A stretch of DNA of 64,000 nt, taken from positions 37,861 through 101,860 of the forward strand of contig CAZWMG010000003.1 of NCBI GenBank assembly GCA_964634945.1, in the 5' to 3' direction. The position numbers and the translations under genes were made by a program. Source of the stretch: an uncultured Planctomycetia bacterium. GTDB lineage: Bacteria; Omnitrophota; Gorgyraeia; JABMRG01. Under the pieces are notes generated by a model. The model made no database searches, was not told the DNA's origin, and worked only from the letters and a program-made list of their open reading frames with translations. The first letter of the stretch is position 1, and every line of letters starts with the position of its first letter. Of the stretch, positions 5,340 to 63,705 are shown piece after piece.

Positions 5340-5340
5340 C

Positions 5341-36860: not shown

Positions 36861-36865
36861 AGCGT

Positions 36866-40597: not shown

Positions 40598-42430
40598 TCA
40601 AGCATCTCTCTTCGGATTATAGCTTGGTACCATCTCTTTTATCTTCTCAACCACTTTATTTTCAGCCATAAGAGTAGCGAAACGCTCAAGCTCCTTTATG
40701 TTCTTTCGTAATTTTTGCGAATTAAGATCATTTGGTTGGGCTATATAAATCTTATCATGCCTTGTTGCTTTATCATGTTCTGCATCAAGCAGCATCTCTT
40801 CATGCATCTTCTCTCCGGGCCTTAAACCGATAAACTTGACATCCATATCCTCCGCGGACTTGAAACCGGATAAGGTTATAAGCGCTTTTGCCAGATCATA
40901 TATCTTTAGCTGCTCACCCATATCAAGAATAAATACTTCCCCTCCCTTGCCCATGGTTCCTGCTTGCATAACAAGCTGCGCCGCTTCATTTGCCGTCATA
41001 AAGTATCTTTTCACCTCAGGATGAGTAACCGTAACCGGACCGCCTTTTTCTATTTGGCTTTTAAATATGGGGATAGCGCTGCCGCTTGACCCTATGACAT
41101 TACCAAATCTGACTGCCATAAATTTTGTCCTGGCTGTTTTTGATTTATCCTGTATCAGCATTTCCGCGATACGCTTTGATGCCCCCATTATGCTTGTCGG
41201 GTTTACGGCCTTATCAGTAGATATCATAACAAAACTTTTCACGCCGTAATGCTCAGCGGCATACATAAAGTTTCTTGTTCCTAGTATATTGTTCTTAACG
41301 CTAGCGACGGGATTTTCCTCCATCAATGGAACATGCTTATGCGCCGCTGAGTGAAAAACTATCTCCGGTTTATATTTTGAAAATGTGTGCTTAAGAAGGC
41401 CTATATCTTTTATATCACCTATAATTACCTTAAATTCGATATAAGGATACCTCTCTTTAAGCTCAAGTTCTAAAAAATAGATATCATTCTCATTATAATC
41501 AAACAAGACTATTAATTTTGGATCAAATCTCATTATCTGCCTGCACAATTCTGAACCAATTGTACCTGCCGCGCCGGTAACCAAGACTGTCTTATCTTTT
41601 ATAAAAGCGCGGACATCATCCGTGTTAATCTGCACTGTCTCTCTGCCCAGCAGATCCTCCGGCTGCACATCCCTTATCTGCTTTATCGTTACCTCGCCTG
41701 TCAGGATATTATGCAATCCGGGAATAGTCTTGATCTTTACTTCCGCATTTTTACATTTTGATATTATCTCTCTTATTGTTTTTCCACTTGCCGAAGGCAC
41801 GGCAATAATAATTTCTTCTATTCCATAGTCCTTTACAACCTCTTCTATGTTATCGGTTGTTGCCAAGACCTTCAAACCGTGTATATGTGAACCCATCTTT
41901 CGCACATCATCATCTACAAAACCTATGGGTTCATATACCCTCTTTTTCGCGTTAACCATCTCACGCGCAGCCATTTCGCCGGCTGAACCCGCTCCTATGA
42001 TAAGCACTTTAGTGAGATTCGTGTAGTAGCGCTGTTTGAGCTTAATAATAACCCTGGGCAAAAATCTGGAAGCGCTTATAAGAAAAAAACAGAGTATATA
42101 ATCTATCAATAATACAGTGCGGCCTATTGTCTGGCGTTGAGTAAAAAACGCGATACTGATAAGCAGGAAGCTTCCTATAGTGACCGCCTTAAATACATTA
42201 ATGGCTTCGCTGATACTGGAGTAGCGGAATGACCATTGATACAGGCCAAAAATAATAAAAAGGATAACCCTTACAACGCTGGCGCATATCATGAAAAACA
42301 GGCATACATTTAAATAGCCATAATTCGGATGCCAATCAAACCTTATCATAAATGCCAGAAAAAACGACGAATTAATCAATATAAGGTCGATTAGTAATAT
42401 AATAATCTTTCTAAATCTTATCAATACCAT
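40598..42430 (-). CDS. membrane-anchored nucleotide-sugar 4,6-dehydratase/epimerase (CapD/WbpM/PglF/FlaA1 family)
   Basis: 610 aa. Four N-terminal TM helices, then two Rossmann regions (IIGAGSAG and VLVTGAAGTIGSEL) and a YxxxK region. Confidence 0.85.
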   Translation of the reverse strand: MVLIRFRKIIILLIDLILINSSFFLAFMIRFDWHPNYGYLNVCLFFMICASVVRVILFIIFGLYQWSFRYSSISEAINVFKAVTIGSFLLISIAFFTQRQTIGRTVLLIDYILCFFLISASRFLPRVIIKLKQRYYTNLTKVLIIGAGSAGEMAAREMVNAKKRVYEPIGFVDDDVRKMGSHIHGLKVLATTDNIEEVVKDYGIEEIIIAVPSASGKTIREIISKCKNAEVKIKTIPGLHNILTGEVTIKQIRDVQPEDLLGRETVQINTDDVRAFIKDKTVLVTGAAGTIGSELCRQIMRFDPKLIVLFDYNENDIYFLELELKERYPYIEFKVIIGDIKDIGLLKHTFSKYKPEIVFHSAAHKHVPLMEENPVASVKNNILGTRNFMYAAEHYGVKSFVMISTDKAVNPTSIMGASKRIAEMLIQDKSKTARTKFMAVRFGNVIGSSGSAIPIFKSQIEKGGPVTVTHPEVKRYFMTANEAAQLVMQAGTMGKGGEVFILDMGEQLKIYDLAKALITLSGFKSAEDMDVKFIGLRPGEKMHEEMLLDAEHDKATRHDKIYIAQPNDLNSQKLRKNIKELERFATLMAENKVVEKIKEMVPSYNPKRDA

Positions 42431-42440: not shown

Positions 42441-43442
42441 TCATGCTCTTTCTTTGAATTTTATAAATAAAGCCATGCCGCTCAACACAAGAACCGCTGA
42501 AACGATAATACCTAACTGAAATAGGCCGGAAACTTTTAAATACACACACGCCATAATAGTCAGTACAATGCTTGTTATGGAGAGAGTCATCGTAACCGCT
42601 CGATGGCTATAACCTAATGTCGTTGCCCTCTGGTAAAAATGACTCCTATGCGCTCTCATCCAATTTTCTTTATGCAAGATTCTTCTTGCTAATGTTATTA
42701 TTGTATCAAATATAAAGACGCCTAATATCAGAGCGATTGGTACAAGCAATCTGCTATCCAGTAAAGCAAAGCACGCGATATAAAATCCCAGGGCATAACT
42801 TCCTACATCACCCATAAATATTTTACCGGGAGGAAAATTTAAAATAAGAAACCCTATAGCAGCGCCCGTAAGTATTAAGCCTAAAGGTATAAGTATATTT
42901 ATTCCTAATATTACGCCAAAGGCCGCGATACCTGCCCCTGAGATCAAGGCCTGCATTCCAGCCAATCCATCTATGCCATCCATAAAATTATAAAAATTTG
43001 TAATGCTAACCACCCATAGAACAGCAAATAATATCCCAACAAGGCCCATATCAAGATTATAAGGGCCTATTCTTAAAGATGTGGAAACGCCCATAAAGTA
43101 TACCACCGCAGACGCGATTAAAGCCTGTAGGATAATCCTGACAAGAGCAGAGAGCTTAAAACGGTCGCTTAAAAGACCTAAGGATGCCATAGCCAAAAAC
43201 CCTGCTGCTATAACAATGTATCTTATCCGCACCGGGAATTGGCCCGCTAGATAATATCCGGCTAACCCTGCAAGTATTCCTAAAACGATGCCTGTTCCGG
43301 CGCCTTTAGGCATAGGCTTATCGTGAGAACTCCGGGCATTAGGCACATCCACTAAGGCAAGTTTATCTCTATTCTTAACCATCCACAAGGAGATTAAAAA
43401 TGATATTACTCCTGACAACATCATTATAGATACTTCCAACAA
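42441..43442 (-). CDS. GT4 (MraY/WecA/WbpL family) polyprenol-phosphate N-acetylhexosamine-1-phosphate transferase; initiating enzyme
   Basis: 333 aa. NFYNFMDGIDGLAG and NARSSHDKPMPKGAGTGIV are hallmark motifs of the MraY/WecA family. Confidence 0.85.
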   Translation of the reverse strand: MLEVSIMMLSGVISFLISLWMVKNRDKLALVDVPNARSSHDKPMPKGAGTGIVLGILAGLAGYYLAGQFPVRIRYIVIAAGFLAMASLGLLSDRFKLSALVRIILQALIASAVVYFMGVSTSLRIGPYNLDMGLVGILFAVLWVVSITNFYNFMDGIDGLAGMQALISGAGIAAFGVILGINILIPLGLILTGAAIGFLILNFPPGKIFMGDVGSYALGFYIACFALLDSRLLVPIALILGVFIFDTIITLARRILHKENWMRAHRSHFYQRATTLGYSHRAVTMTLSITSIVLTIMACVYLKVSGLFQLGIIVSAVLVLSGMALFIKFKERA

Positions 43443-47697: not shown

Positions 47698-49431
47698 TTA
47701 GATAAATTCTTGTAATATATGATTTGAAAAAATATTGTAGTCCGCTTTTGAAAAAAAATCTTCTACATTTACCTTTGGATATCTATCGCTCTTTAAAGCC
47801 TCTTTAATTCTATCACTGAAATTTTCCTCATAAGATACAAATATATCCTCCTCAAGAAAATCTTCATGGCTCAAGGCAATCTCTTCAGGTATAACATATA
47901 AGGTCTTAACCCCTGAAATAACGGATTCAAACGCTACTGTAGAACCTGACGTAATAACTAAACAGGCATCCTTAAGCAGGCTGCCTATCTCCTCTTTAAT
48001 ATAATCACAATTCTTATAATCAGCGAATTCATCTCTTAGATATGCCTTTTCCGGTAAAAGAGGGTGCGGCTTTATCTTTATTATATAATCAGGCAAGGCA
48101 TCTCTTTTTAGAAAATTAAGCAAGAGCCTCTGTAACCATATTGAGACACCCTCGTCTATTGAAAGTGCTATAATAATAGAGTTGCAAAGAGCTATATTCT
48201 TATCCGCGCATGCAAAAAGGTGACTATAGCGAAGAGCCCCTGCTACTTCAATCACGGAAGATGGATAGTATTTTCCTAAAAATGACGCCCATTTTTTTCC
48301 TGCGCATAAGATTGACTGTGGAACAATTTCTTTATCTTCAAACCTCGATGTGCAGTAATTCAAAGAATTGCGCGTTATCGTCGAATGCTGGTAAGCTATT
48401 CTGCTAAATTTTTCAAAGCCTAAGTTAAGCATCTTTTCCCATGGCTGGTTTTCAAAAGGATAAATAAAGCAAGTATCCCCCTTCACTCTAAGAGCTAAAT
48501 TGCGATACGAATGGTATAAGAACAAATGTCCGATATAAATTTTTAAGGCATTCTCTTTTAATACCTCGTTTGCTGTCAGTAGTTTTAAGATATCATAATC
48601 CTGTACAGAAGAGGATGTCTTATTGTTCATAGACACCGCAAAACGGGTAAAAACCGATTTAATCATATCCTTAAAGGTCAGATAAGAGAGCGGGAAGACT
48701 ATATTATCAAAATTTTTGCGAAGCCTGAATATCTCTTTTAAGCGTAACCTGGCTCCTGTAAGCCTTGCTACAGTATGTCCGTTTTTTACTAAGAAATTAC
48801 CCAAGTCCGCTAAGTATGAGTCAGTAAAATCAGGCAGCGACTTAAATGTCCTGCTGTCTATCCAACTGTGTATAAATACATCTATGCCTTTGATGTTCTT
48901 CTGCTTAAAAAAATGGTAGATGAACCAGAAGATAATATCAACCAAAACTTCCCGGTAACCTCTTATCCTTCTATGGAGGCGGCTTTTATAAAACCCGGAA
49001 TGGCTCAGAACAGCTATCTTGCCGGAACGCTGGTTTTTAGTATTTGTTAATATCTCTTCATCATCAGTAACAACCAATAAATCCTTATGCGAGACTGACA
49101 ACTTTTTAAGTAATTTCTGATAAACATATTGATTAAAAAGAGAGGTTTCATTAATCGATTTCGAGGCCATAGAGCCTGCATACCACAGGACCTTATTATC
49201 TTGCAGGGCAGAAAGTATTCCTATGTAATCTAAGAAATTATCGCGTACCGACTCTGTTATAATCTTAATATCTCTCGCGATAAATATCCTCTTCTCATTA
49301 CTGAGAATCTTCTCCGCTTCTTTTTTGCCTCCGTGCCTGCCGATATAAATCCACTTAAGATTAGAGAATTTAGTCAAGAGAGCAGCGTCATTAGAATTTA
49401 TAAGATAGAGCATGAAAAGCCTTCCAAGCAA
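47698..49431 (-). CDS. putative surface-polysaccharide transferase (TagF/KpsS-Capsule_synth-like C-terminal motif)
   Basis: 577 aa. ACLVITSGSTVAFESVISGVKTLYVIPEE resembles both the TagF (DILITDYSSVFFD...KP..FF.PD) and Capsule_synth (vvtinSgvGfEAll.GkPV) donor-binding motifs. I cannot choose between them. Confidence 0.35.
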   Translation of the reverse strand: MLGRLFMLYLINSNDAALLTKFSNLKWIYIGRHGGKKEAEKILSNEKRIFIARDIKIITESVRDNFLDYIGILSALQDNKVLWYAGSMASKSINETSLFNQYVYQKLLKKLSVSHKDLLVVTDDEEILTNTKNQRSGKIAVLSHSGFYKSRLHRRIRGYREVLVDIIFWFIYHFFKQKNIKGIDVFIHSWIDSRTFKSLPDFTDSYLADLGNFLVKNGHTVARLTGARLRLKEIFRLRKNFDNIVFPLSYLTFKDMIKSVFTRFAVSMNNKTSSSVQDYDILKLLTANEVLKENALKIYIGHLFLYHSYRNLALRVKGDTCFIYPFENQPWEKMLNLGFEKFSRIAYQHSTITRNSLNYCTSRFEDKEIVPQSILCAGKKWASFLGKYYPSSVIEVAGALRYSHLFACADKNIALCNSIIIALSIDEGVSIWLQRLLLNFLKRDALPDYIIKIKPHPLLPEKAYLRDEFADYKNCDYIKEEIGSLLKDACLVITSGSTVAFESVISGVKTLYVIPEEIALSHEDFLEEDIFVSYEENFSDRIKEALKSDRYPKVNVEDFFSKADYNIFSNHILQEFI

Positions 49432-49456: not shown

Positions 49457-50338
49457 TTACTTAGCCCTTACTGCTTTGGGCTCATATGAACTATTCAACA
49501 GCTCAAATATGCCCTGTCCCAAATCCACATAATCAGAACCGATTACCCGTTTGGCCATTTTAGGCTTAAAATTATATGGCGTTATCTCATAATGCTCATC
49601 ATCGGAGGCATCATTAAATGTCAGAACTACATCGTTATTCAGCATCTCTTTGACCATTATCAGGAAATCTTTGATCCTGATAGGCTGATAACCTGTTATC
49701 ATAACATATTGATTCTTAAACTCATTCTCAAGCATCTTAACACTTAAGCGTGCCGCGTCATAAACATGGATATATTCCCTGATCTCATTGCCGTCGCCTG
49801 ACCTGACAATCTTCTTATCGACAACAGCTTGCCTCAACATTCTGTTTATCCAGTTGGAATCATCCGCCCTTGGTCCATATAACGAGCCGTAACGTAGAAT
49901 AGTGAAATCAAGATCATACTGTTTGTTATAGCTCTCTATTAGTAACTCACAAGCCTGTTTACTCGCCCTGTAGAATGACCCGGCTTCGCTATAGACGTAG
50001 ACAGTGCTCGCGAATATAAATCTTTTTATCCTGTTCTCGCGACAGGCCTCGAGGATATTCGTTGTACCGATAATATTAGCGTGAATAGTCTCATAAGGCT
50101 GAACTTTCGCCTGATCGATATCAGCTACCCCCGCGAAATGATATACTATATCAGCGCCTATAGTCGCTTTTTTTACTGATTCGATATCCAATATATCGCC
50201 AACTAACATCTCCTGGCTTGCTTGTACATACGGTGAAGGCCTTTTATCATATATGACAACTTCGTGGTTACCTTCTGAAAGATAATCAGCGATATGACTT
50301 CCCAAAAAACCTGATCCGCCAAAAATTACAATCTTCAT
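49457..50338 (-). CDS. NAD-dependent epimerase/dehydratase-family protein
   Basis: 293 aa. VIFGGSGFLGSHI Rossmann motif and YRASK catalytic region. Confidence 0.75.
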   Translation of the reverse strand: MKIVIFGGSGFLGSHIADYLSEGNHEVVIYDKRPSPYVQASQEMLVGDILDIESVKKATIGADIVYHFAGVADIDQAKVQPYETIHANIIGTTNILEACRENRIKRFIFASTVYVYSEAGSFYRASKQACELLIESYNKQYDLDFTILRYGSLYGPRADDSNWINRMLRQAVVDKKIVRSGDGNEIREYIHVYDAARLSVKMLENEFKNQYVMITGYQPIRIKDFLIMVKEMLNNDVVLTFNDASDDEHYEITPYNFKPKMAKRVIGSDYVDLGQGIFELLNSSYEPKAVRAK

Positions 50339-51034
50339 TTAATAATCCTCCTTTAAATAGCTTCTTTCTGTACTCACTATAATGATATCAAGGTTAGATA
50401 GATCTTCAATTACCTTGTGGTCCCCTTCTATCTTAACGCCGTGTGTCGGCCTTCTCTCAATAAAAGCGATGCCTGTCTCCTGCGCGGCTATCTTATCACT
50501 TGACGCGTCCCCGATATAAATAGCCTCGTCTTTTTTATAATTGTTCTTATCTAATATATAATTGATAATTTCAGGCTTACTTCTGGGGGTACCGTAAACC
50601 TCTTTAAAATAACCTTGTAATTTCCTTGCCTGAATAATACCGCATAACTCATCATGAGGGGTTCCTGAAGCGACAAAAAACGCGTACTTATGCATATACT
50701 TACGTAAAAACTCATCCGCGCCCGGAACAAACGGGGCAGCGAGGATCTTTTGCAACACGATACGGGAAAAACTTTCTCCCAATTCGAGTTCTTTTTCCCT
50801 GGAAAATCTCTTTCCCAGGATCTCCTCATATATATGCTGAAACTTTACATAACGCGAGATGCCGGCGTTAAAAACATGGTAATCAGTAATCTCCCGCACC
50901 TTTTCAGGGTAATCGGAAAATAGCTCCTGAAAGGCCTGGGTCTTTATATCCGATGACTCCAGTATGACACCGTCAAAATCAAATATTATAGCTTTTATCA
51001 TCCAGTAAAACCGCTCGTGATGGCGCGCCATCAC
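50339..51034 (-). CDS. HAD-superfamily hydrolase (phosphatase/phosphomutase-like, subfamily IA)
   Basis: 231 aa. IKAIIFDFDGVI (DxD motif I) and a later GDASSD motif IV. The real start is probably the MIKAIIF Met at about 51001. Confidence 0.8.
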   Translation of the reverse strand: MMARHHERFYWMIKAIIFDFDGVILESSDIKTQAFQELFSDYPEKVREITDYHVFNAGISRYVKFQHIYEEILGKRFSREKELELGESFSRIVLQKILAAPFVPGADEFLRKYMHKYAFFVASGTPHDELCGIIQARKLQGYFKEVYGTPRSKPEIINYILDKNNYKKDEAIYIGDASSDKIAAQETGIAFIERRPTHGVKIEGDHKVIEDLSNLDIIIVSTERSYLKEDY

Positions 51035-51581
51035 CCTCTCCTATTTTTAATGGCAAGCATAGAAGCTTATAATAACCCTGCTTGACCTTTTTCAAATAAA
51101 GCCCCTCTACTATAATAACGTCTCTGCTCAATAAAAAGCGATGAACAGGATGAGTCTTATCGCGAGATTCTTCGATAGATGTCTCCTCAGTGCCTACAAG
51201 ATCAATACCATTGGAAACCAATAATTTTGCCTCATCTATCGCAAGGCCCTGAAACGATTTTTTTCTTTTAAATAATATACCTCTTATGCCTTTTGTCTTA
51301 AACCCCTTAAGCAAGGCTGTGTTGGGAAAGTCATCGATCACTGTCACAAAAACATCACATATCAATCGCCTAAGATCTATCTTATCGATTGTCCGCCCTT
51401 TTTTGTATATGTGCCTTGGGGCATCTATATGCGTACCTGTATGGCTACCAAGCGAGATATTTTTAAGGTTACATGAATTCCCTTCTTCTAAAGACTTAAC
51501 GCTCTCTATCACAATATCCGGGTCACTAGGATACTTTTCCATATCAACATTAATCGTCCTGCTTATATCTATATATCTCAT
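50979..51581 (-). CDS. cyclase-family protein (kynurenine formamidase-like fold)
   Basis: 200 aa. LGSHTGTHIDAPRH fits the HxGTHxDAPxH metal-binding signature of the family. Confidence 0.55.
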   Translation of the reverse strand: MRYIDISRTINVDMEKYPSDPDIVIESVKSLEEGNSCNLKNISLGSHTGTHIDAPRHIYKKGRTIDKIDLRRLICDVFVTVIDDFPNTALLKGFKTKGIRGILFKRKKSFQGLAIDEAKLLVSNGIDLVGTEETSIEESRDKTHPVHRFLLSRDVIIVEGLYLKKVKQGYYKLLCLPLKIGEGDGAPSRAVLLDDKSYNI

Positions 51582-51593
51582 ATACTATATAAC

Positions 51594-52514
51594 CTATGCT
51601 ATTTCTGCCAAGCCGGTTAGCAGATTGTTCACTGCCTGGTTTTCCATCTGTACTCTTGCTTCTTTCGCGTAAGAGCCTACATGCGGAGTAAGAATTACAT
51701 TTCTAAACTGCGTTAGTCCTCCGTTGTATGGCTCCTTCGAAAAGACATCACAGGCAGCTCCTGCCAGATTGTTTTTATCCAGCGCAACGCAAAGAGCAGC
51801 CTCATCAACAATGCCACCCCGCGAGCAATTTATTAAAAAAGCGTCTTTTTTCATAAGTGAAAATTCATCCGCGCCTATCATCATAGAATTCTCCTTTGAA
51901 GCCGCGAGATGAAGGCTTACGATGTCGGATTTTTTAAGCAGCTCATTCAATCCAAGATTGGGATAAGATGATATCTTATCCTTGATAAATGGGTCATGAT
52001 ATACTACATCTGAGCCAAAGGCATCGAGAAGCTGCGCTACTTTTTGGCCTATCCTGCCAAAACCTATAATGCCAACGCATTTGCCATATAATAGGTTACC
52101 CATATTTTTGCTCCATAGGCCCGATCGAAGCTCCTGATCCATAAAAGATATTCTACGTATCAGAGAGAGCATTAAGCCGATGGTAAACTCCGCCACGGCC
52201 AGAGTTGGGCCATCCGGAGTATTACGTATTTCTATATTTAATCTTTTAGCCGCGTTTAGATCTATAGTATCGAGTCCTACCCCGCAACGGGAGATTATTT
52301 TAAGCTCGGGCAATTTTAAAAGGACCTCTTCTGAAAAATTTTCTGTGCCCGCGATTATTCCTACGGCATCTTTCGAGAGAGCAATAATCTCAGAAGGCTC
52401 TACCTTACGGTTGTGTGGATTAAGAACCACCTCATGCCCCTTGTCCCTGCAAATATCCAATGGACCGCTATCATATTTAGCGAATGTTGTTGTCAATACC
52501 GTAATTTTACTCAT
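51594..52514 (-). CDS. D-isomer-specific 2-hydroxyacid dehydrogenase (NAD-binding; PGDH/GDH-like)
   Basis: 306 aa. GIIGFGRIGQKVAQLL, a DVVSLH-like segment, and a catalytic His region (ILTPHVGSYAKEA). Confidence 0.85.
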   Translation of the reverse strand: MSKITVLTTTFAKYDSGPLDICRDKGHEVVLNPHNRKVEPSEIIALSKDAVGIIAGTENFSEEVLLKLPELKIISRCGVGLDTIDLNAAKRLNIEIRNTPDGPTLAVAEFTIGLMLSLIRRISFMDQELRSGLWSKNMGNLLYGKCVGIIGFGRIGQKVAQLLDAFGSDVVYHDPFIKDKISSYPNLGLNELLKKSDIVSLHLAASKENSMMIGADEFSLMKKDAFLINCSRGGIVDEAALCVALDKNNLAGAACDVFSKEPYNGGLTQFRNVILTPHVGSYAKEARVQMENQAVNNLLTGLAEIA

Positions 52515-53506
52515 GTCGATTTGTCCTTTTTCTTTTTAGCCAGTACCCTCATATGGGAACTGTGGTTATTTCTTGAGATCCAGGACTGTAATTGATCCTT
52601 ACTCTCTTGGCTACCCTCCTTAACCAGTAGATTCCAGAATCTTCCTAAATCTACGCCCTCGTTTTTCATCATACCTTCAACAATATCCCAGTCAAGCTTA
52701 CCCGGGGTTGAAATATCGATGACCTCAAAGCCCGATCTCTCCAGTAGCAACGAGATAGAATGAGTATTAAAGAAATTCAGGTGATGAGGCGGCGTCAGAC
52801 TCTTTGACCTCTCCCATAATAACTGTATATCAAAGCCCTGACCATTAAGCATTGTCATTAAAAGGTGGCCGCCGGAAGTTAATAGTTTTTTAACGGAATT
52901 TAAGAAACTTAAAGGGTCAAAAAGATGCTCGAATAATTCGAAAGCCGTAAGCATATCAAATTGCTCCCCGTAACCTTTTAATTCCTCCAACATGCAGGAT
53001 TCCACCTTAATTCCCTTTTCAGAACAGATCCTTGACTCCTCTTTAGACGGCTCTATAGCCAAGAGCTTATCCAATGGCCTTAGGGCTGATAATTCCTCTA
53101 GAAAAAGCCCAAAACCCGCTCCGATATCACCTACAGAATTTTTTTTCTTAGCAGACAGGATTGTAGAGGCATATTCCGCTCGCGGACGAAATATCTTCTC
53201 TCTCCTCGCTTCCGCTACCGGCTTGAAAAAGACCTTGCCCCAAAAGAGGGCCGATGGAGAATCAGCGTAAAACCTTTTAAGGTCATCATTACTTGGACGA
53301 GGACTTACATATATAGTATTACATTGTCCGCATAAGACATAATCGAAATTTTTCTTCTTAAACCCGGTTTTTTTGTCGTTGCTCGCGCAAGCGGGGCATA
53401 GTATCTCTGTAAACGATGTGAAATCAAAAAAATCTTTTACATCTTTTTCAACCATCTCTATATACTGATTAAAGGCCTCTCTATTTCTTATATCTTCCTC
53501 TTTCAT
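52511..53506 (-). CDS. class I SAM-dependent methyltransferase with N-terminal Zn-ribbon
   Basis: 331 aa. CPAC...CGQC ribbon, then DIGAGFGLFLEEL motif I. Confidence 0.65.
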   Translation of the reverse strand: MKEEDIRNREAFNQYIEMVEKDVKDFFDFTSFTEILCPACASNDKKTGFKKKNFDYVLCGQCNTIYVSPRPSNDDLKRFYADSPSALFWGKVFFKPVAEARREKIFRPRAEYASTILSAKKKNSVGDIGAGFGLFLEELSALRPLDKLLAIEPSKEESRICSEKGIKVESCMLEELKGYGEQFDMLTAFELFEHLFDPLSFLNSVKKLLTSGGHLLMTMLNGQGFDIQLLWERSKSLTPPHHLNFFNTHSISLLLERSGFEVIDISTPGKLDWDIVEGMMKNEGVDLGRFWNLLVKEGSQESKDQLQSWISRNNHSSHMRVLAKKKKDKST

Positions 53507-54297
53507 TACAAGACCTTTCTTTGGGCTCTTTCAATATACTCTTCTACAAGAGGGCAACTTTTCAGCCTATCTTCTACGTTACGCAGATCCTCTTTTATAT
53601 CAACACTATAAGTATCAGACCCAGATAGCACCATCTTAACCTTAAACCCATGTTCTAATAGACGCAGCATATCTACTGACTCAATTATCTCAAGCGGGGT
53701 AGCGGGCAGGTTATTAAATTTAATGAGAAAATTTCTTCTAAAGGGAATGATACAGACCTGCTTATGCGTAATTAGGTTATTTTTTCCTTTTTTGCGCGAA
53801 GGTATAGGCTCCCTGGAAAAATACATTGCGAAGGAATTCAGATCCGCAACGACCTTTACCTCATTAGGGTCATTCTGCTCTTCCTCTGTCTTTAGCTCTG
53901 CCATGAGATTAACCACCTGTATCTCATCGTCTTTTAGCATGGGTTCTATCGCTTCATCGATCATTTCAGGCCGTAGCATAGGTTCGTCGCCTTGAATCAT
54001 AACTACAACATCGATTCTTCTACCTATATCCCTTTCTATCTTGGCCATCGCCTCCGCTGTTCTATCAGTCGCTCTTTCGTGTGTATCCAATGTCATAATG
54101 GATTTTCCGCCGATCGATTCTACATAATCAGCTATCTCTTTATCACATGTCGCCACATAAACATCGCTTAATGTTTTAGACATCTTGCTTCTCAGTAATA
54201 CGTGTCCAAGCATTGGGATATTTAGAATTTTCGCCAAAGGCTTACCCGGAAAACGGCTTGATCCCATGCGGGCAGGGATTATTCCTACAATATTCAT
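53506..54297 (-). CDS. cytidylyltransferase-family protein (KdsB/NeuA-like, CTP_transf_3)
   Basis: 263 aa. IIPARMGSSRFPGKPLAKI N-terminal motif and IQGDEP metal-binding region. Confidence 0.7.
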   Translation of the reverse strand: MNIVGIIPARMGSSRFPGKPLAKILNIPMLGHVLLRSKMSKTLSDVYVATCDKEIADYVESIGGKSIMTLDTHERATDRTAEAMAKIERDIGRRIDVVVMIQGDEPMLRPEMIDEAIEPMLKDDEIQVVNLMAELKTEEEQNDPNEVKVVADLNSFAMYFSREPIPSRKKGKNNLITHKQVCIIPFRRNFLIKFNNLPATPLEIIESVDMLRLLEHGFKVKMVLSGSDTYSVDIKEDLRNVEDRLKSCPLVEEYIERAQRKVL

Positions 54298-54303
54298 AAG
54301 GCC

Positions 54304-55065
54304 CTAACCTTTCTTTATCATAGATAAATCTTTATACATATCAGTAGCCAGGAAAAGCGTATCTAAACTATAAGCTATAAAATTATACCCCTGCCTTACC
54401 TTCTCTTTAACCTCTTTGAGATCAGGCTGTATAACATGAAAACCTGAAACCGCCTTGAATGACCTTGATACCGCGGTAACCCTTTTTAACGCATCTCTGA
54501 CTTTTGCGTCTTGAAACTCCCCCGGTTTGCCTAGAGAACCGGAAAGATCGTAGGGCCCTATGATAAAACCGTCTACTCCTTTTACCTTTAATATCTTGTC
54601 TATATTTTTAACCGCCTCAATATGTTCGATCTGCACGATAACTATGCTATTTCTATTAGCCCAGTTCTTATATTTTTCGAAACTCATGCCATAACCTTGC
54701 GCCCTAGCGAGCCCAACGCCTCTAATGCCCGCTGGTGGATATTTAGCGGACTTTACAGCACGGATAGCATCGTCTTCGGTATTGACCATAGGCACTATGA
54801 CGCCGTGCGCGCCGGCATCCATAATCCGTTTGATCAGATTAGGATTGTTTTCACCAACCCTTACAAGCGGAACGCATCCAGCCAGGTCTATGACCTGTAT
54901 CAGCCGCTGCGCCTGGTCTAAGCCTATCGCGCTATGCTCCACATCTATTGTAAGCCAATCAAATCCTGCCTTAGCCATGATCTCCGCAATAGCTGTATGA
55001 CCTATGGTAATCCAGGAACCTATTGTAAGCTCCTTAGCTTTGAGCTTCTCTTTAAGCGTTTTCAT
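54304..55065 (-). CDS. HpcH/HpaI-family pyruvate-dependent aldolase
   Basis: 253 aa. GSWITIGHTAIAEIMAKAGFDWLTIDVEHS matches the family consensus. Confidence 0.75.
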   Translation of the reverse strand: MKTLKEKLKAKELTIGSWITIGHTAIAEIMAKAGFDWLTIDVEHSAIGLDQAQRLIQVIDLAGCVPLVRVGENNPNLIKRIMDAGAHGVIVPMVNTEDDAIRAVKSAKYPPAGIRGVGLARAQGYGMSFEKYKNWANRNSIVIVQIEHIEAVKNIDKILKVKGVDGFIIGPYDLSGSLGKPGEFQDAKVRDALKRVTAVSRSFKAVSGFHVIQPDLKEVKEKVRQGYNFIAYSLDTLFLATDMYKDLSMIKKG

Positions 55066-55105: not shown

Positions 55106-56305
55106 TTAAATTACAAATAACTCAATATTATCAATTAGGAATCTATTCGATGCTCCTCTGGTATCAATAATAATTTTATCCAATATGACTTCATCTTCGA
55201 CGGCCCATCCTCCAATGGAAGCTGCCTTTTCCACATATGTGCATAAATCTTTGATACTATGCTCAACCCAACCATCAGCATTATCTCTACGCAGAGTAGG
55301 AGGCATGCAAACACCGGTTATTTCCTGTTTGGGATAAATAACCTTAAAATACAAATGCACTCCAGAGGGATTGGAACTTTTTATAGAAACTCTAATTCCT
55401 ATGTTCAGGCCTGTATCATCCAATAGGAACTTTGTATTCTTTGACCAAAAATCATACCCTTCTCCAATATATTCTATATCCAAGATCTCTAAATGATTCT
55501 CTTTGCTCATAGGATCCCGGGCAATAGCGTGGCTGCTGATCTTTGATCGCGCGTTACTCATCAATCTGGATAACCTATAAACAGGGCCCTCAAAATCCTC
55601 AAGAACCACATAGATATTGTCACCCCATATCTCTTGCTTTATCTTGTCTTTGTCATAATAATTTCTACTTACATACGATAAAACATCTACGGGACTCTTG
55701 CCATAATCTAATATCCTTTTTGTAAAAAAGGATCTTGCCTGCTTAAAAAGCTTGTTTGATATGTAGGCATTCCCGATTAAAAAATACAACTCCTTGGCGC
55801 GCAGCGCGATAGGCCGCTCTTTTAAATCAGACGCGACAGATATATACTTTTTAGCGTCCGCAAAATCAGGATAATGGACCTTTAAAAAACCAAGACTTTT
55901 AATCGCGGCGTCAAATCTTGCTGACTCAAGCATCCCTATAGCTATCAATAGGTTATTTTGCCGGCTATCCTTATCATAACTATCCTGCAAATAAAGAGTC
56001 AAAATTTCCGTGTCAACCTTGGCGTAAGATTCTATAGCCAAATTCTCAAAATTAGACTTTGCGTATAGATTACCTAAAGCTAAATTTAACTTTGATACGG
56101 CCTCTTTATTAAGATATTTTTTCGCGTTGTCCTTTGCTAATATCCTGTTATAAAGATAGATACTCTTACCATACTCATGCCTATCTCTATGATAATCAGC
56201 TAGCTTCATTCTAAACCATAAGCTACTGTGAACATGCAGTAGCACAAGAACAACGCAAAAAAAGAACAAGAGAATAAATCTTAGCCTACGCATATTCATG
56301 AGCAC
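55106..56305 (-). CDS. hypothetical membrane-anchored protein (N-terminal TM, helical repeat region, C-terminal beta-rich domain)
   Basis: 399 aa with no recognisable catalytic motif. Confidence 0.35.
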   Translation of the reverse strand: MLMNMRRLRFILLFFFCVVLVLLHVHSSLWFRMKLADYHRDRHEYGKSIYLYNRILAKDNAKKYLNKEAVSKLNLALGNLYAKSNFENLAIESYAKVDTEILTLYLQDSYDKDSRQNNLLIAIGMLESARFDAAIKSLGFLKVHYPDFADAKKYISVASDLKERPIALRAKELYFLIGNAYISNKLFKQARSFFTKRILDYGKSPVDVLSYVSRNYYDKDKIKQEIWGDNIYVVLEDFEGPVYRLSRLMSNARSKISSHAIARDPMSKENHLEILDIEYIGEGYDFWSKNTKFLLDDTGLNIGIRVSIKSSNPSGVHLYFKVIYPKQEITGVCMPPTLRRDNADGWVEHSIKDLCTYVEKAASIGGWAVEDEVILDKIIIDTRGASNRFLIDNIELFVI

Positions 56306-57095: not shown

Positions 57096-58000
57096 TGCTT
57101 GGCCTCCTTCATTCTTATCAGTCCTTCGCGCACACCTAAGGGGGATATTCCTAATTCCCGCTTGATCTTGTCTATCTTATAAGTTGTATTGCGCGGCCTC
57201 GGGGCTATTGCAGGAAAAAATGAACTGTCTACGGGCCTTATTCTGCCTTTGTTGAAACCGAATATTTCCGCGGTAATACACGCAAATTCATACCTCGAGA
57301 TCTCATCTCTGCCTCCGGCATGATATATACCTTTTTTATCCATAGCGATTATTTTCCATATTATATCCGCGCAATCACCCGCAAAGAGTGGATTACAAAA
57401 TATATCATCAACCATATTAGTGGACTTATCACCTTTAAGCATATCGATAAGCCAAGTAACGGGATTTTTTCTTTCCACAGGAAGATTCCAACCATACATC
57501 AATATCGCCCGTACAATGCTGTGGTCTAATCCGCTCTCCTTGATCAAAGATTCTTCCTGCAATTTTAGATTTCCATAATAGCTAATAGGGTTTGCTCTAT
57601 CTTCTTCCGCGTAAGGGGGGCTTGTTCCATCAAAAACGGCATTTGAGGATATATATAACAACCTTGCGGCGACTTTCTTGCAGGCATCTATAATATTAGA
57701 TGTGCCGCCTAGGTTTACAGCCTTTGCCTCTTCTTTATTTTTTTCCACATAATCTACACTAGCAAGGGATGCGGCATGAATTATGTAATCAGGTTTTATA
57801 GTTTCCATGATACCAAAAACTGCCTCTTTATCCCTGGTATCAAGATGATATTTTCCACAATTATTTATAATAGCGTCTTTCTTATCAGCAGGAAAAAAGG
57901 AGTATGACGCGTCTACGCCTTCAGGCACAGACCCTACTAAATAGCTACCCAAAAGTCCCGTGCCGCCTGTTATAAATACCTTCTTATTCTTTTTGTACAT
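57092..58000 (-). CDS. NAD(P)-dependent epimerase/reductase (SDR extended family)
   Basis: 302 aa. VFITGGTGLLGSYL. Confidence 0.65.
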   Translation of the reverse strand: MYKKNKKVFITGGTGLLGSYLVGSVPEGVDASYSFFPADKKDAIINNCGKYHLDTRDKEAVFGIMETIKPDYIIHAASLASVDYVEKNKEEAKAVNLGGTSNIIDACKKVAARLLYISSNAVFDGTSPPYAEEDRANPISYYGNLKLQEESLIKESGLDHSIVRAILMYGWNLPVERKNPVTWLIDMLKGDKSTNMVDDIFCNPLFAGDCADIIWKIIAMDKKGIYHAGGRDEISRYEFACITAEIFGFNKGRIRPVDSSFFPAIAPRPRNTTYKIDKIKRELGISPLGVREGLIRMKEAKQ

Positions 58001-58718
58001 TCATATCCTCTGTCAAATTATTTTGGCCTGACAATAAAGATTCGGCGGATGCAAAATCTATTCTAGTATCAATATCTACTGAACGTATACGTGGCATGAG
58101 ATACCCAAGGGTTTTTTTGCCATAAAAAGTTTTGTGTCTCTTAAGAAAATCCCAATACGCTAAATATATAGCGCCGTTTAGTTTGTAAGCATTTGAAATT
58201 CCCTCCTTATCATGCTCGGCAAATAATGGGCTCATGGAATCCTTAAACAGTCCTACTAACAGCGCCTTGCTTTCTATGTCGATACAGTTCTCTGTATGGC
58301 AAACCGATACGATAGCATCTGCTTTTTTCGAAAAAAGAAGTTCTATGGACCTGTCTATATCCTTAACAAGCCTTAAAGGTGAGGTCGGCTGCAATAAGAT
58401 TAATATATCAAAATTTTCATTATTATTCTCCACCCAATCCATAGCATGCAAAACAAGGCTTATTGACTTTGAGTTATCAGCAGCCAGTTCCTTAGGGCGT
58501 AAAAAGGGTACTTCCGCGCCGCACTCCTTAGCAACTAAAGCTATCTCCTTGTCATCCGTTGAAACAATAACTCTATCAATATAGGTGCTTATTTTTGCCT
58601 GTTCAACTGTCCAGCCAATCAATGGTTTTCCTAGCAGTAATCTTATATTTTTACGAGGCAACCTTTTGCTGCCACCCCTTGCAGGAATTAAGGCTAATAT
58701 TTTTTTATTTTCATACAT
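57984..58718 (-). CDS. CMP-nonulosonic acid synthetase (NeuA/PseF/LegF-like acylneuraminate cytidylyltransferase)
   Basis: 244 aa. ILALIPARGGSKRLPRKNI is the classic NeuA N-terminal motif. Confidence 0.8.
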   Translation of the reverse strand: MYENKKILALIPARGGSKRLPRKNIRLLLGKPLIGWTVEQAKISTYIDRVIVSTDDKEIALVAKECGAEVPFLRPKELAADNSKSISLVLHAMDWVENNNENFDILILLQPTSPLRLVKDIDRSIELLFSKKADAIVSVCHTENCIDIESKALLVGLFKDSMSPLFAEHDKEGISNAYKLNGAIYLAYWDFLKRHKTFYGKKTLGYLMPRIRSVDIDTRIDFASAESLLSGQNNLTEDMNVQKE

Positions 58719-59813: not shown

Positions 59814-60989
59814 CTAAACTTTTGCATATTCCGGTTCTCTTGCTGATCTCTGCCACAATGGGTCTTTCAGCTTCCATTGTCTATTATTATCTTTCTCAAA
59901 GATATCCTTGTTATAGAACTTATCAATAATATTCCAAAACTGACTGCGTGAATAACCTGCAAAATCTACAAAGTCATCTACAGCTTTAGGATCGAGTGCG
60001 TGATCGTGTTTTTTGACTAATTCAATAGCTTCTTGCCTGGTGATCATACCATACCTGATAAATCTAGAGAGATAATCTGTGGCAGAGGCATGCCCGAACT
60101 TCGGATACTTCATCCAGGCATGAACAAGATATGCCCTGGTATCTACTGAATCAAAGTCTTCAACATGGTGCTGTCTTTTCCATTCATGGGTCAAGTCTTT
60201 AAAACCTCTCTTCTTAGCAAAAATATAATTCCTGTAACTATTCCATTTTATAAAATAACTCAAATATATTGGTTCGAGTTTTTCTTGTTCGAGCTCTTTT
60301 TTAGAGGGGTAGATGCAAAGCCCCATATCTTTCATCTCAACGCCATTTCCTAATAACACATCCCAGGAGATATCTGAGGCTACATCATTGTTCACCTGAT
60401 CTTTTGCAGAATACGCCTCACTGTTTTGGGAGCCGCCATATTCGTAGTTTACATTCTCGCCATATATTAAAAAAGGAATCGAAAATTTTATCGCCATGTG
60501 GACAGGGTATGTATAGATTAAACGATCAATGTACCATGTAGGTTTTCCATATTTCTCAAAGGTCTTACGCATAAGTATCTTCTGTGCTCTAATATTAGGT
60601 TTTAGGCTGATAATATCGCAGCCGAACTCTTCGGAGATGTTTTTAATATTATGCTTACCTGCCTCTGGCATAGGAAAATTATCCTCTACTGAGACAAGCA
60701 AGGGGTTCATTCCCAAGCGCTCCTTCATAATATGGACCTGAAAATGGCTATCCTTGCCACCGCTTACCGCTATCATGCAGTCGTAGCCATCCTTTCCTGT
60801 GTTTCTATATTTATCGCAGAGCTTTTCCAGCTCTGTAAAACGCGTATCCCAATCAACCTTATCCTTTATCTCCTCAGCACGGCATCCAGCGCATATCCCT
60901 TCTTCATCAATAACAATTCCTGGGCGCGAGGAGGGCATAACACACTTTTTACAGTATTTCATTACATCTCCTTTCGTATCTAAATACAC
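59814..60989 (-). CDS. N-acetyl sugar amidotransferase (PP-loop ATPase; WbpG/PseA-like, acetamidino-forming)
   Basis: 391 aa. N-terminal Zn-ribbon CKKC...CAGC, then the PP-loop AVSGGKDSHFQ. Confidence 0.65.
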   Translation of the reverse strand: MYLDTKGDVMKYCKKCVMPSSRPGIVIDEEGICAGCRAEEIKDKVDWDTRFTELEKLCDKYRNTGKDGYDCMIAVSGGKDSHFQVHIMKERLGMNPLLVSVEDNFPMPEAGKHNIKNISEEFGCDIISLKPNIRAQKILMRKTFEKYGKPTWYIDRLIYTYPVHMAIKFSIPFLIYGENVNYEYGGSQNSEAYSAKDQVNNDVASDISWDVLLGNGVEMKDMGLCIYPSKKELEQEKLEPIYLSYFIKWNSYRNYIFAKKRGFKDLTHEWKRQHHVEDFDSVDTRAYLVHAWMKYPKFGHASATDYLSRFIRYGMITRQEAIELVKKHDHALDPKAVDDFVDFAGYSRSQFWNIIDKFYNKDIFEKDNNRQWKLKDPLWQRSAREPEYAKV

Positions 60990-62202: not shown

Positions 62203-63705
62203 CTAAGTAGGCTGCTTCTGGGTACTCTTTAACCATATATCCTTATACCTAAAAGGGATATTGCGTGGAAGCCCTGAAGCTTCTCTCTTTTCTTTTAGAT
62301 AGTCACGACATCTCTTCTTAAACTTTATTAATTCATCGATAGATAAATTATGGGGCTTAAAATGAGGGTAACCTGAATCAAGATGCAAGTCTGTAATATT
62401 AACATAATCGTCAACGTTATGCGCAAGCAGATTATGGCTTTTGCAATAATCGAATAATTCTGTACCGGGATAGGGTGTCGCAAAGTTTGATGAAAAATTA
62501 TCAAGAGGCAAGGTTGTCATCATATTATATGTTTCTTCGAGGGTTTCACGCGTCTCCTCAGGCATGCCTATAATAAAATAAGCTGTTAAAAAAAGATGTT
62601 TATGCTCTATACAGGCTTCGCAAGCTTCGTATATCTTAGCTGTAGGGAGGTTCTTCTTCATTACTTTATTTCTTATATACTCGGAACCGCTTTCAATGGC
62701 AATATTTATCCTGACCATGCCTGCGTTGACCAAAGCACTTACAACATCTTTATCCAATCTATTTATCGCGATCCCATTCGGAGCATCAAATTGAATTTCC
62801 ATCTTTCGTTTCACAATTCCTTCACATATTTCTATAATTCGCCTCTTGTCAAATGTAACATTATCATCCATGAATTCAAAGTAGCGAACATTGTAATCGT
62901 TATACAATTTCTCCATCTCTTCTAAGACGTTACCTGAGGATCTGTGCCTAAACCTTAAACCGTGCACTAACCACATACTGCAGAAAGTACAGCGTTGCGG
63001 ACAACTTCTACTTGAAATAACAGTAAAAGGCTGTCCAACCGCTATGCCTTTTGGGGAATACCAGCCGGAAGTATCCATGTTCTTATATGCTCCCATATCC
63101 AGTATGCTATAATCTATAGAAGGCAACTCATCCAGATTATCGATAAATTTAGTTTTTGGATTCAGGATTACCCTGCCTTTTTTTCTAAATGCGATACCAT
63201 CGATGAGCTCAAAGTCGTTGTTATCATTAACCAGTGACGTAATCAATTCCAGAAATGTAAACTCGCCTTCGCCTATAATTACATAATCAATGCAATTGTA
63301 TTTTTCTAAAATATCTTTTGAAAATACAGTAGGATGCATCCCGCCTATCACAATAGGTATTTCGGGGAAATTTTTCTTTATATTATTCGCTATTATTTTG
63401 AGATTTTGAAATGCCCCTGAAAATGTGCACCCCAAGCCTATTATGTTGGGCCTGTAATCATCAATAGCGGATAAGAGCTGGTTATTAAAATAATCATTCA
63501 ACTCATCCGCACTTGGGCTCTCCGTATGATTATAGTAGTGATTATTGACATCAATAAGCTTGACATCTATATCGTTCTTCTTTAGCATTGTACCCAAAGA
63601 TAGAAGCCCAAGAGGGAAAAAGTTATCCGGATTAAACTCATTTCTTGATGTAGGCAAATTGAAAAGCATTACCTTTGTCTCTGCGTTTAACATTTTGCCT
63701 CCCAT
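62203..63705 (-). CDS. B12-binding domain radical SAM protein, paralogue 4
   Basis: 500 aa. B12-binding N-terminus (KVMLFNLP...LGLLSLGTML), CPQRCTFCS triad. Confidence 0.8.
   Translation of the reverse strand: MGGKMLNAETKVMLFNLPTSRNEFNPDNFFPLGLLSLGTMLKKNDIDVKLIDVNNHYYNHTESPSADELNDYFNNQLLSAIDDYRPNIIGLGCTFSGAFQNLKIIANNIKKNFPEIPIVIGGMHPTVFSKDILEKYNCIDYVIIGEGEFTFLELITSLVNDNNDFELIDGIAFRKKGRVILNPKTKFIDNLDELPSIDYSILDMGAYKNMDTSGWYSPKGIAVGQPFTVISSRSCPQRCTFCSMWLVHGLRFRHRSSGNVLEEMEKLYNDYNVRYFEFMDDNVTFDKRRIIEICEGIVKRKMEIQFDAPNGIAINRLDKDVVSALVNAGMVRINIAIESGSEYIRNKVMKKNLPTAKIYEACEACIEHKHLFLTAYFIIGMPEETRETLEETYNMMTTLPLDNFSSNFATPYPGTELFDYCKSHNLLAHNVDDYVNITDLHLDSGYPHFKPHNLSIDELIKFKKRCRDYLKEKREASGLPRNIPFRYKDIWLKSTQKQPT

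Follow-up and report, generated by a model that had tools for sequence, protein, structure and literature searches.

A conserved aldolase-cytidylyltransferase cassette as a candidate phosphoenolpyruvate-independent route to a CMP-activated ulosonic acid

Can a sugar acid destined for activation with cytidine monophosphate (CMP) be assembled without the synthase that usually builds its carbon skeleton? [quoted passage not shown] The question is raised by seven open reading frames (ORFs) on the minus strand, at positions 49457-55065, of a 64-kb stretch of contig CAZWMG010000003.1 from an uncultured bacterium of the Omnitrophota (the window hereafter means this whole stretch of 64,000 nucleotides). 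Here a class II 2-oxoacid aldolase of the HpcH/HpaI type adjoins a KdsB-like cytidylyltransferase (CT), a pairing that a first-pass annotation had read as a possible aldolase-based route to a CMP-activated 2-keto-3-deoxy acid. We propose, at about an even chance, that these seven genes represent one instance of a self-contained and widely transferred cassette, which would make a CMP-activated 2-ulosonic acid without a PEP-dependent synthase. More tentatively, and at somewhat less than an even chance, we suggest that an undescribed CMP-activated ulosonic acid is made in this PEP-independent, aldolase-based manner by a wide range of uncultured anaerobic bacteria, bacteria of the candidate phyla radiation, and archaea.

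The argument begins with the conservation of gene order. A scan for the aldolase over one genome per GTDB species returned at least 489 relatives, of which the best 80 loci were fetched, their ORFs called and labelled according to their resemblance to window proteins and to neighbours that recur; many of the 81 loci compared lie on truncated contigs. Cassette loci, at least 81 in number, occur in the Omnitrophota, Planctomycetota, Dehalococcoidia, Desulfobacterota, Patescibacteria, methanogens, Hadarchaeia, and Thermoplasmatales. With the aldolase as the sole query, 79 of the 81 loci retrieved have a CTP_transf_3 gene no more than 7 kb away from it; also found are a 2-Hacid_dh gene (58 loci), a short-chain dehydrogenase/reductase or SDR (47), a Zn-ribbon methyltransferase (34), and a HAD phosphatase (31), nearly all on the same strand. 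Such an arrangement is far beyond chance. Searches of protein databases show both the aldolase and the KdsB-like CT keeping 63-76% identity across bacterial and archaeal phyla, an indication that the cassette is under strong constraint and is often transferred horizontally. For the aldolase, the relatives at 63-76% identity in a collection of 5.8 billion proteins span the Omnitrophota, Patescibacteria, Thermodesulfobacteriota, Methanococcoides, and Hadarchaeum, an unusually high degree of conservation between domains of life. The cassette can also stand alone: a plasmid of the cultured Acuticoccus sp. I52.16.1, NZ_CP094833.1, bears a five-gene version (aldolase, CT, D-2-hydroxyacid dehydrogenase or 2HADH, HAD, and oxidoreductase), with the aldolase and CT pair at record positions 40686-42175, in which the neighbours of the aldolase bear the labels "acylneuraminate cytidylyltransferase family protein," "phosphoglycerate dehydrogenase," "HAD family hydrolase," and "NAD(P)-dependent oxidoreductase." The other cultured carriers are Syntrophomonas wolfei subsp. 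methylbutyratica and Methanococcoides sp. AM1.

Two sets of loci with complete flanks, 48 with at least 6 kb and 43 with at least 9 kb on both sides, allow the partners to be counted. Within the former the CT is KdsB-like in 31 loci and NeuA-like in 15, with both types in one locus and neither in another; the NeuA-like proteins measure about 226 residues and have a Vibrio CMP-Neu5Ac synthetase as their closest solved relative (6IFD, 4e-17). A NeuB gene was found within 10 kb in 21 of 82 loci and was not seen in 61. Among the 43 loci with the longer flanks, 26 have no NeuB, and all 26 carry at least one CT; CT genes outnumber NeuB genes by at least one in 36, and the modal rule is that the number of CTs equals the number of NeuBs plus one, which is the outcome to be anticipated were the aldolase a synthase in its own right, served by a dedicated CT. 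The aldolase thus appears to have a CT of its own. The window fits the rule, holding three CTs (3502-4260, 53506-54297, and 57984-58718), one per CMP-sugar module, for two NeuB-type modules and the aldolase module; its nearest NeuB (5341-6177) lies 43 kb from the cassette, together with its own CT (3502-4260), a GNAT protein, and a DegT aminotransferase.

The same counts bear on the strongest rival explanation, which we consider unlikely, namely that the cassette makes the hydroxy-acid N-acyl group of a legionaminic- or pseudaminic-type sugar; a glycerate-type substituent had already been named as an alternative in the first-pass annotation. Pyruvate and glyceraldehyde or its 3-phosphate would be joined into a 2-keto-3-deoxy-aldonate, followed by removal of the phosphate by the HAD, reduction at C2 by the dehydrogenase, and methylation of the new 2-hydroxyl by the methyltransferase to yield the 3-deoxy-aldonic acid to be attached, and the neighbouring CT would be a nonulosonic-acid CT specialised for the bulky derivative. 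There is a precedent in the flagellin of Treponema denticola, which carries a 2-methoxy-4,5,6-trihydroxyhexanoyl-nonulosonic acid, a Pse-type sugar whose acyl group is exactly the product expected of an aldolase, a phosphatase, a D-2-oxoacid reductase, and an O-methyltransferase (PMC13439194). The dehydrogenase would gain a natural and thermodynamically favourable role, the window itself holds Leg-like and Pse-like modules, the 21 loci with a nearby NeuB would be accounted for, as would the 7 of 43 full-flank loci in which CTs and NeuBs are equal in number, and the NeuA-like CT is interchangeable with the KdsB-like type. However, the conserved core offers no enzyme that could activate the carboxylate or form the amide, be it an ATP-grasp protein, an acyl-CoA ligase, or a GNAT. 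The tightest partner of the aldolase is the CT (79 of 81); the dehydrogenase is less constant, with about 6-11 of 48 loci lacking it, and the methyltransferase is missing from two thirds of the loci. Moreover, the 26 full-flank loci noted above and the Acuticoccus plasmid cassette have a CT and no NeuB nearby, and loci that do contain NeuB usually hold an extra CT.

An ORF check returned all seven genes as first called, and matches to Pfam and NCBIfam profiles bear out every one of the family assignments, including the two for which a profile check had been proposed at the outset, PF03328 on the aldolase and PF02348 on the CT (Table 1). Consecutive genes are separated by -56 to +12 nt, an operon-like layout, in a window of about 39% G+C whose minus strand holds nearly all genes.

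Table 1. Genes of the cassette and the adjoining candidate transferase, in order of transcription (positions in the window)
Predicted product	Position	Strand	Profile evidence
HpcH/HpaI-type class II (metal-dependent) 2-oxoacid aldolase	54304-55065	-	PF03328, E 6.7e-37
KdsB-like CMP-sugar-acid synthetase (CT)	53506-54297	-	PF02348 CTP_transf_3, E 2.2e-48
Zn-ribbon class I S-adenosylmethionine (SAM) methyltransferase	52511-53506	-	Methyltransf_23, E 1.4e-17
D-2-hydroxyacid dehydrogenase (2HADH), GhrB-like substrate motifs	51594-52514	-	PF02826 2-Hacid_dh_C, E 2.2e-55
Cyclase/kynurenine-formamidase-family metal hydrolase	50979-51581	-	PF04199, E 2.9e-15
HAD-IA phosphatase	50339-51034	-	HAD_2, E 2.3e-19
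GalE-like extended SDR (epimerase or oxidoreductase)	49457-50338	-	PF01370 Epimerase, E 1.5e-49
577-aa GT-B-fold protein, candidate CMP-sugar transferase	47698-49431	-	Weak TIGR04326 and BFO_1060 matches

The aldolase scores 127.3 bits against PF03328, for which the gathering cut-off is 25. All four key residues of HpaI, the metal ligands E149 and D175 and the catalytic H45 and R70, have counterparts (E147, D173, H44, and R69, respectively) that are invariant in 21 family members, so the protein is expected to be active as a class II 2-oxoacid aldolase. Its identity to the 81 cassette aldolases is 53-68%, as against 39% to HpaI and 35% to YfaU. A catabolic identity as HpaI, GarL, or RhmA was considered and rejected: these curated equivalogs are matched and all missed on score (TIGR02311, 191.8 against a cut-off of 368.8; NF007849, 168 against 393; NF007521, 168 against 441; TIGR03239, 164 against 406.75), and the gene context is one of glycan synthesis. 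A plasmid collection gives the same picture, with a single aldolase match above 41%, that of Acuticoccus sp. I52.16.1 at 46%, which is again part of a cassette; the next matches, bphF and hpaI, reach at most 40.5%, compared with 46-76% for cassette members. Among the genes conserved next to the aldolase in the 81 loci there is no dehydratase, no transporter, and no gene for aromatic degradation. The reservation that the aldolase might group with catabolic enzymes, made when the pathway was first suggested, is thus answered by glycan genes as neighbours throughout these loci and by catabolic homologs that are no more than 40.5% identical.

As to the reaction itself, enzymes of the HpcH family add pyruvate, hydroxypyruvate, or 2-oxobutyrate to glyceraldehyde, erythrose, or ribose in vitro, and the physiological roles listed for the family in the same review are catabolic only (PMC7610986). 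No column of the aldolase alignment tracks the type of CT or the presence of the 2HADH, and the aldol reaction therefore appears constant across the cassette variants. Fusions of aldolase to CT, or of CT to phosphatase, are absent among the best 120 homologs of either protein.

The CT raises a question of its own, because a protein of this family could simply serve Kdo. Its scores are 165 bits against PF02348 and, above the cut-off, 308 against PRK13368 (255) and 268.7 against NF003952 (193), both of which are subfamily models, and it falls short of the two kdsB equivalogs (TIGR00466, 149.2 against 155.2; NF003948, 180.3 against 281). To compare residues, 51 cassette CTs were aligned with Escherichia coli KdsB and KpsU and with Coxiella KdsB. 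The residues that handle cytidine triphosphate (CTP) and metal, R10, R15, K19, Q98, D100, K143, and D235, are kept throughout; R10, R15, K19, Q98, and D100 are conserved in 51 of 51 sequences, and D235 in each of the 49 sequences without a gap there. The sugar pocket, by contrast, is altered in a consistent manner: H181Q, E210D, and Q211M each occur in 50 of the 51 sequences, S74R in 48, and Y185I in 43. Of these positions Y185 is documented and H181 modelled in the literature, where a 3K8D-based model has the C5 hydroxyl of Kdo hydrogen-bonded by Q98 and Y185 (PMC12199768); E210 and Q211 were picked as invariant in the three reference KdsB/KpsU proteins. This coherent replacement of Kdo-pocket residues appears to mark out a subfamily whose specificity is for some sugar different from Kdo.

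These observations also bear on a second rival, in which the CT is a capsule-type KdsB/KpsU using Kdo supplied by a kdsA elsewhere in the genome, and the aldolase and its neighbours are unrelated or catabolic. This reading draws on names and similarity: the sources annotate the CT family as "CMP-KDO synthetase," the protein passes the KdsB-named subfamily PRK13368, and its best match in the Protein Data Bank (PDB) is E. coli KpsU (1.4e-40), to which, as to E. coli KdsB, it is 35-39% identical. Against it stand both missed equivalog cut-offs, the family-wide replacement of H181, Y185, E210, and Q211, and the want of any catabolic genes conserved beside the aldolase. Furthermore, neither the window nor any of 82 loci of up to 20 kb encodes a KdsA homolog. 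The KdsB-like variant is found in Hadarchaeia, Methanoperedens, Thermoplasmatales, Saccharibacteria, Dehalococcoidia, and Syntrophomonadaceae, and several of these hosts, being archaea or monoderm lineages, do not make lipid A; in them, too, the pair of CT and aldolase is kept. We consider this alternative highly improbable, and ordinary CMP-Kdo supply essentially excluded; the concern that the enzyme might be a canonical KdsB is answered by the missed cut-offs and the replaced pocket residues. A plasmid collection yields as CT matches ordinary kdsB genes at 40% identity or less. As a separate observation, proteins of the KdsB-like CT family are routinely auto-annotated as CMP-Kdo synthetase, also in lineages without lipopolysaccharide (LPS).

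The dehydrogenase is a nearly universal member, found in 37-42 of 48 loci according to where the score threshold is set, and its closest solved structure is a Pyrococcus horikoshii enzyme deposited as a phosphoglycerate dehydrogenase or PGDH (1WWK, 2e-58). It scores 233.6 against the PGDH equivalog TIGR01327, where 454 is required, and an I-A-G-x-E motif that is invariant in 54 of 54 family members stands where PGDHs carry I-V-R-S, the arginine of which binds the substrate phosphate. A role as a PGDH making phosphohydroxypyruvate was dropped because this "VRS" motif is replaced family-wide. The missing arginine, the glutamate, and a GS..E.R..M sequence after the catalytic histidine are all features in common with E. 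coli GhrB, a glyoxylate/hydroxypyruvate/2-ketoaldonate reductase. From these motifs we conclude that the substrate is probably a hydroxy or oxo sugar acid without a phosphate, or else glycerate/hydroxypyruvate, so that the designation D-2-hydroxyacid dehydrogenase holds at the family level, with substrate motifs that are GhrB-like and not those of a PGDH.

A GhrB-type enzyme opens a third alternative, in which the product is a non-deoxy 2-ulosonic acid, a CMP-sugar with a 3-hydroxyl as in D-glycero-D-talo-oct-2-ulosonic acid (Ko), made without oxygen. Either the dehydrogenase and phosphatase would yield hydroxypyruvate from phosphoglycerate via glycerate, for use as the aldol donor, or the SDR or a Gfo/Idh/MocA oxidoreductase (GFO), a lactonase, the phosphatase, and the 2HADH would turn a sugar phosphate via the aldonate into a 2-keto-aldonate. 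The dehydrogenase motifs suit both versions, being those of a hydroxypyruvate/2-ketoaldonate reductase; the minimal set of a Saccharibacteria locus consists of precisely aldolase, CT, 2HADH, and HAD; and each of the two exclusive accessory modules described below amounts to one oxidoreductase plus one phosphatase (SDR and HAD with or without cyclase, or GFO and a GmhA-like SIS protein with or without an IMPase). Most hosts are anaerobes, in which the Kdo 3-hydroxylase KdoO, being O2-dependent, could not work. The thermodynamics are unfavourable, however, for NAD+ to oxidize glycerate or an aldonate, the aldonate version leaves the aldolase without a role, and no residue evidence separates a pyruvate from a hydroxypyruvate donor. 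We also know of no CMP-activated 3-hydroxy ulosonic acid. HpcH-family aldolases do accept hydroxypyruvate as nucleophile (PMC7610986), and we regard a non-deoxy product as quite unlikely on balance. What endures of the route first suggested is the aldolase feeding the CT, upheld by synteny in at least 81 loci, by the counts of CT against NeuB, and by most loci having neither KdsA nor NeuB; its "3-deoxy" element depends on the donor, as hydroxypyruvate would give a 3-hydroxy acid.

Around the core of the proposed PEP-independent ulosonic acid pathway, the other genes vary in a structured manner. The SDR (169 bits to PF01370) has GGSGFLG and YRASK sequences that conform to the GxxGxxG and YxxxK motifs, and its best PDB matches are UDP-GlcNAc and UDP-Glc 4-epimerase-like proteins at about 1e-24; it is present in 25 of 48 loci and is strictly exclusive with the GFO. 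The HAD phosphatase (70.6 bits to HAD_2) shows the DxDG nucleophile in FDFDGV and is not of the KdsC type, its HAD-IIIA match being weak and partial; it is found in 24 of 48 loci and never together with an IMPase-family phosphatase (0 loci). The start as annotated, a GTG, gives a 56-nt overlap with the cyclase gene, and an internal ATG (MIKAIIFDFDG) may therefore be the true start. The cyclase-family protein carries the metal motif HxGTHxDxPxH as HTGTHIDAPRH and is an accessory member, seen in 13 of 48 loci, 12 of which also have the SDR. Assignment as a kynurenine formamidase (arylformamidase) was rejected, the score against TIGR03035 being 111.4 where 223 is required; PDB kynurenine formamidases match at 4e-23, and only PF04199 and the metal motif support the family. 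In the methyltransferase, an N-terminal Zn ribbon (CPAC...CGQC, of the CxxC...CxxC form) can be read directly; orthologs above 200 bits are confined to 14 of 48 loci, all with a KdsB-like CT (14 of 32 such loci), and its probable role is O-methylation of the sugar acid or of its CMP derivative.

Two accessory sets emerge from this variation. The first, a GalE-like SDR with HAD and with or without cyclase, characterizes 25 loci including the window; the second, a GFO with a GmhA-like SIS isomerase, to which an IMPase-family phosphatase or a classical SDR may be added, characterizes 16. The sets are mutually exclusive, in that no locus combines the SDR with the GFO or the HAD with an IMPase; each occurs with both types of CT, and the 2HADH is common to both. 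Confined to cassettes with a NeuA-like CT is a protein of about 425 residues encoded between the CT and the aldolase (7 of 16; the loci are L004, L010, L028, L035, L049, L052, L058, and L061), which has no Pfam or NCBIfam match and is probably a transferase or another dedicated step.

A further partner may be the 577-aa protein encoded directly downstream of the cassette (Table 1). It has no Pfam match and scores below the cut-offs of TIGR04326 (E 5e-15; 54.8 against 250) and of the BFO_1060 domain, which stands for the BFO_1060/Tanf_01245 nonulosonic acid transferases (E 2.5e-7; 30 against 200), and the closest named homologs are "hypothetical proteins" of Candidatus Omnitrophica. An AlphaFold2 model built from 28 sequences (pLDDT 92) was compared by Foldseek and matched GT-B proteins, among them UDP-GlcNAc 2-epimerases, the Kdo transferase WaaA (4.4e-7), OtsA, BshA, and PseG, with low TM-scores. 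Relatives are encoded downstream of the cassette in 8 of 48 loci. Seven of eight syntenic homologs have the sialyltransferase-type "HP" motif, and a DEG sequence is seen only in the window protein; the HP motif has been described for the Pse/Leg transferases of Tannerella forsythia (PMC5420450). Together these features make the protein a plausible candidate for the transferase of the CMP-sugar. The 425-aa family is unrelated to this TIGR04326-like protein (hhalign probability 0.7%).

The pathway that we favour would then run as follows. The aldolase would join a 2-oxoacid donor, pyruvate or possibly hydroxypyruvate, to a polyhydroxy aldehyde or its phosphate, giving a 4-hydroxy-2-oxo sugar acid, and the HAD phosphatase would strip a phosphate carried over from the precursor or the aldol product. 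The KdsB-like CT would couple the hemiketal form to CMP at the expense of CTP, and the release of pyrophosphate in this step would draw the aldol equilibrium towards synthesis. Supply of the acceptor, or tailoring of the sugar or CMP-sugar, would fall to the Zn-ribbon methyltransferase, the GalE-like SDR, and the cyclase-family hydrolase; the GhrB-like 2HADH may act on a non-phosphorylated 2-oxo or 2-hydroxy sugar acid or on glycerate/hydroxypyruvate. Finally, the GT-B protein would move the sugar into a Wzy-dependent, lipid-linked glycan built by the GT4, GT2, GT1, and Wzy-like proteins encoded downstream.

Several considerations weigh against this pathway. The product is a prediction from gene content and sequence. 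A pyruvate aldol reaction is reversible and thermodynamically weaker than a PEP condensation. The near-universal 2HADH poses a particular difficulty, as reducing the aldol product at its 2-oxo group, the most obvious target of such an enzyme, would destroy the anomeric centre that the CT needs. The seven full-flank loci with equal numbers of NeuB and CT, together with the NeuB, NeuC, or WbuX genes that often lie nearby, make a link to nonulosonic acid metabolism possible. Lastly, the GT-B match of the modelled 577-aa protein is generic, and its TIGR04326 and BFO_1060 scores lie far below the cut-offs. Gene content, the retention of catalytic residues, conserved synteny, the non-KdsB pocket of the CT, and the glycan-assembly setting were all computed directly; the cassette is a well-supported conserved functional unit, and it is its chemistry alone that we infer.

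That setting is a very large surface-glycan locus of the Wzy type. In the direction of transcription the 577-aa gene is followed by genes for a Wzy-like protein, a family 1 glycosyltransferase (GT1), a methyltransferase, and a GT2, and further on by a WecA-like GT4 (42441-43442), a PglF-like dehydratase, and a second Wzy_C protein. No tRNA gene is found in the 64-kb window. Directly upstream of the aldolase lies a 399-aa ORF (55106-56305) with a hydrophobic N-terminus and no family match; its homologs are limited to three contigs with an identical aldolase and gene order (L001-L003), so that it is not a conserved cassette member, and it is not homologous to the 425-aa protein of the cassettes with a NeuA-like CT. 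Beyond it comes the legionaminic-acid-like module, with a B12-binding radical SAM enzyme, NeuC, a WbuX-type amidotransferase, a CBS-nucleotidyltransferase, and a PseF-like CT (57984-58718); the NeuB of this module must lie beyond the end of the window. The amidotransferase is a 391-aa ORF (59814-60989) that has no Pfam match and is assigned to the WbuX-type N-acetyl sugar amidotransferases by TIGR03573 (374 bits against a cut-off of 203), from which an acetimidoyl-substituted legionaminic-type sugar can be expected of the module. The Pse-like module at the opposite end (3502-9081) comprises a DegT aminotransferase, an adh_short protein, a 278-aa NeuB without the SAF domain, a GNAT fusion, a CT, and an aldo/keto reductase, along with an MbnB/TglH/ChrH-like (DUF692-type) protein (7118-7909) that is unusual for a sugar pathway.

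B12-binding radical SAM genes are a recurrent feature of such loci: one (62203-63705) belongs to the window, where genes of this kind stand beside NeuC, and they accompany the aldolase-CT pair in 18 of 81 loci. CMP-activated ulosonic acids with an extended (C10) backbone have been described in Magnetospirillum (preprint, bioRxiv 10.64898/2026.04.20.719630), and C-methylation by B12-binding radical SAM enzymes could be one source of extended backbones. Three more such enzymes (9438-10925, 14247-15656, and 21075-22478) are spread over the region 9438-29348, where they are interspersed with five PMT_2/ArnT-like GT-C proteins (10950-12761, 12772-14250, 17189-18838, 23505-25217, and 27969-29348), four GT2 proteins of about 237-240 residues (15653-16366, 16479-17192, 26511-27224, and 27257-27979), a SPASM radical SAM enzyme (22475-23497), and a YfhO-like protein (18835-21063); the region looks like several parallel units of periplasmic glycosylation and C-methylation. 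A NodU/CmcH-type carbamoyltransferase (609 aa) and an adenosine phosphosulfate (APS) kinase at 32358-34772 suggest carbamoylated and sulfated sugars. The otherwise co-directional locus is broken by its sole plus-strand island (34903-38179), which encodes a GT2, an AAA_14/DUF4143 ATPase, and a 437-aa protein without family match and coincides with a local change in GC skew.

Within the full-text literature that could be searched, no paper was found on this gene combination or on such a route. If the proposal is correct, it would amount to a second biosynthetic logic for ulosonic acids and would give the HpcH/HpaI aldolases their first physiological role in anabolism. An undescribed surface sugar would also be implied, in the N-glycan/S-layer loci of archaea and in Patescibacteria, Omnitrophota, Dehalococcoidia, anammox bacteria, and sulfate reducers. 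For organisms that lack LPS, "CMP-Kdo synthetase" annotations would in thousands of cases denote another sugar, and a systematic annotation error would be corrected. The signature residues of the cassette would provide a simple genomic marker for this sugar, and the cultured carriers make the prediction directly testable by nucleotide-sugar mass spectrometry.

How the cassette relates to known systems can be stated compactly: it works like the Kdo and nonulosonic-acid pathways, with a synthase and a CMP-synthetase, but fails membership of the canonical KdsB, the NeuB-type synthases, and the catabolic aldolases. With the Kdo pathway (KdsD, KdsA, KdsC, and KdsB) and its capsule counterparts KpsF/KpsU, it has in common the logic of condensing a three-carbon acid with a sugar or sugar phosphate, dephosphorylation by a HAD-superfamily enzyme, and formation of a CMP-β-glycoside by a CTP_transf_3 enzyme with identical catalytic residues. 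It differs in having no KdsA and, in its place, a PEP-independent HpcH class II aldolase, in a phosphatase of the HAD-IA and not the KdsC-type HAD-IIIA class, in the altered sugar pocket of the CT, in the added dehydrogenase, SDR, methyltransferase, and cyclase, and in its occurrence in archaea and monoderms as well. The nonulosonic acid pathways (NeuB/LegI/PseI with NeuA/LegF/PseF) likewise combine a synthase with a dedicated CT and variable accessory or tailoring genes in glycan islands; one third of the cassettes use a NeuA-like CT, and cassettes often adjoin Leg and Pse modules. Their synthase, however, is unrelated to the TIM-barrel aldolase of the cassette, which uses a 2-oxoacid and not PEP, and the cassette core has no aminotransferase or N-acetyltransferase, with NeuB not found in 61 of 82 loci. 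The side chain of the T. denticola flagellin sugar has the acyl structure expected as the output of four cassette enzymes, whereas the cassette has no ligase and keeps its own CT. With the catabolic HpcH-family aldolases (HpaI/HpcH, YfaU/RhmA, GarL, and BphF), finally, the cassette enzyme has in common the fold, the metal ligands, the catalytic arginine and histidine, and the chemistry, which it would run in the synthetic direction. Cassette aldolases are only 35-40% identical to these enzymes, bear a two-residue deletion that gives the signature RGVGLARAQ, and reside among genes for glycan biosynthesis in place of those for the degradation of aromatics or sugar acids.

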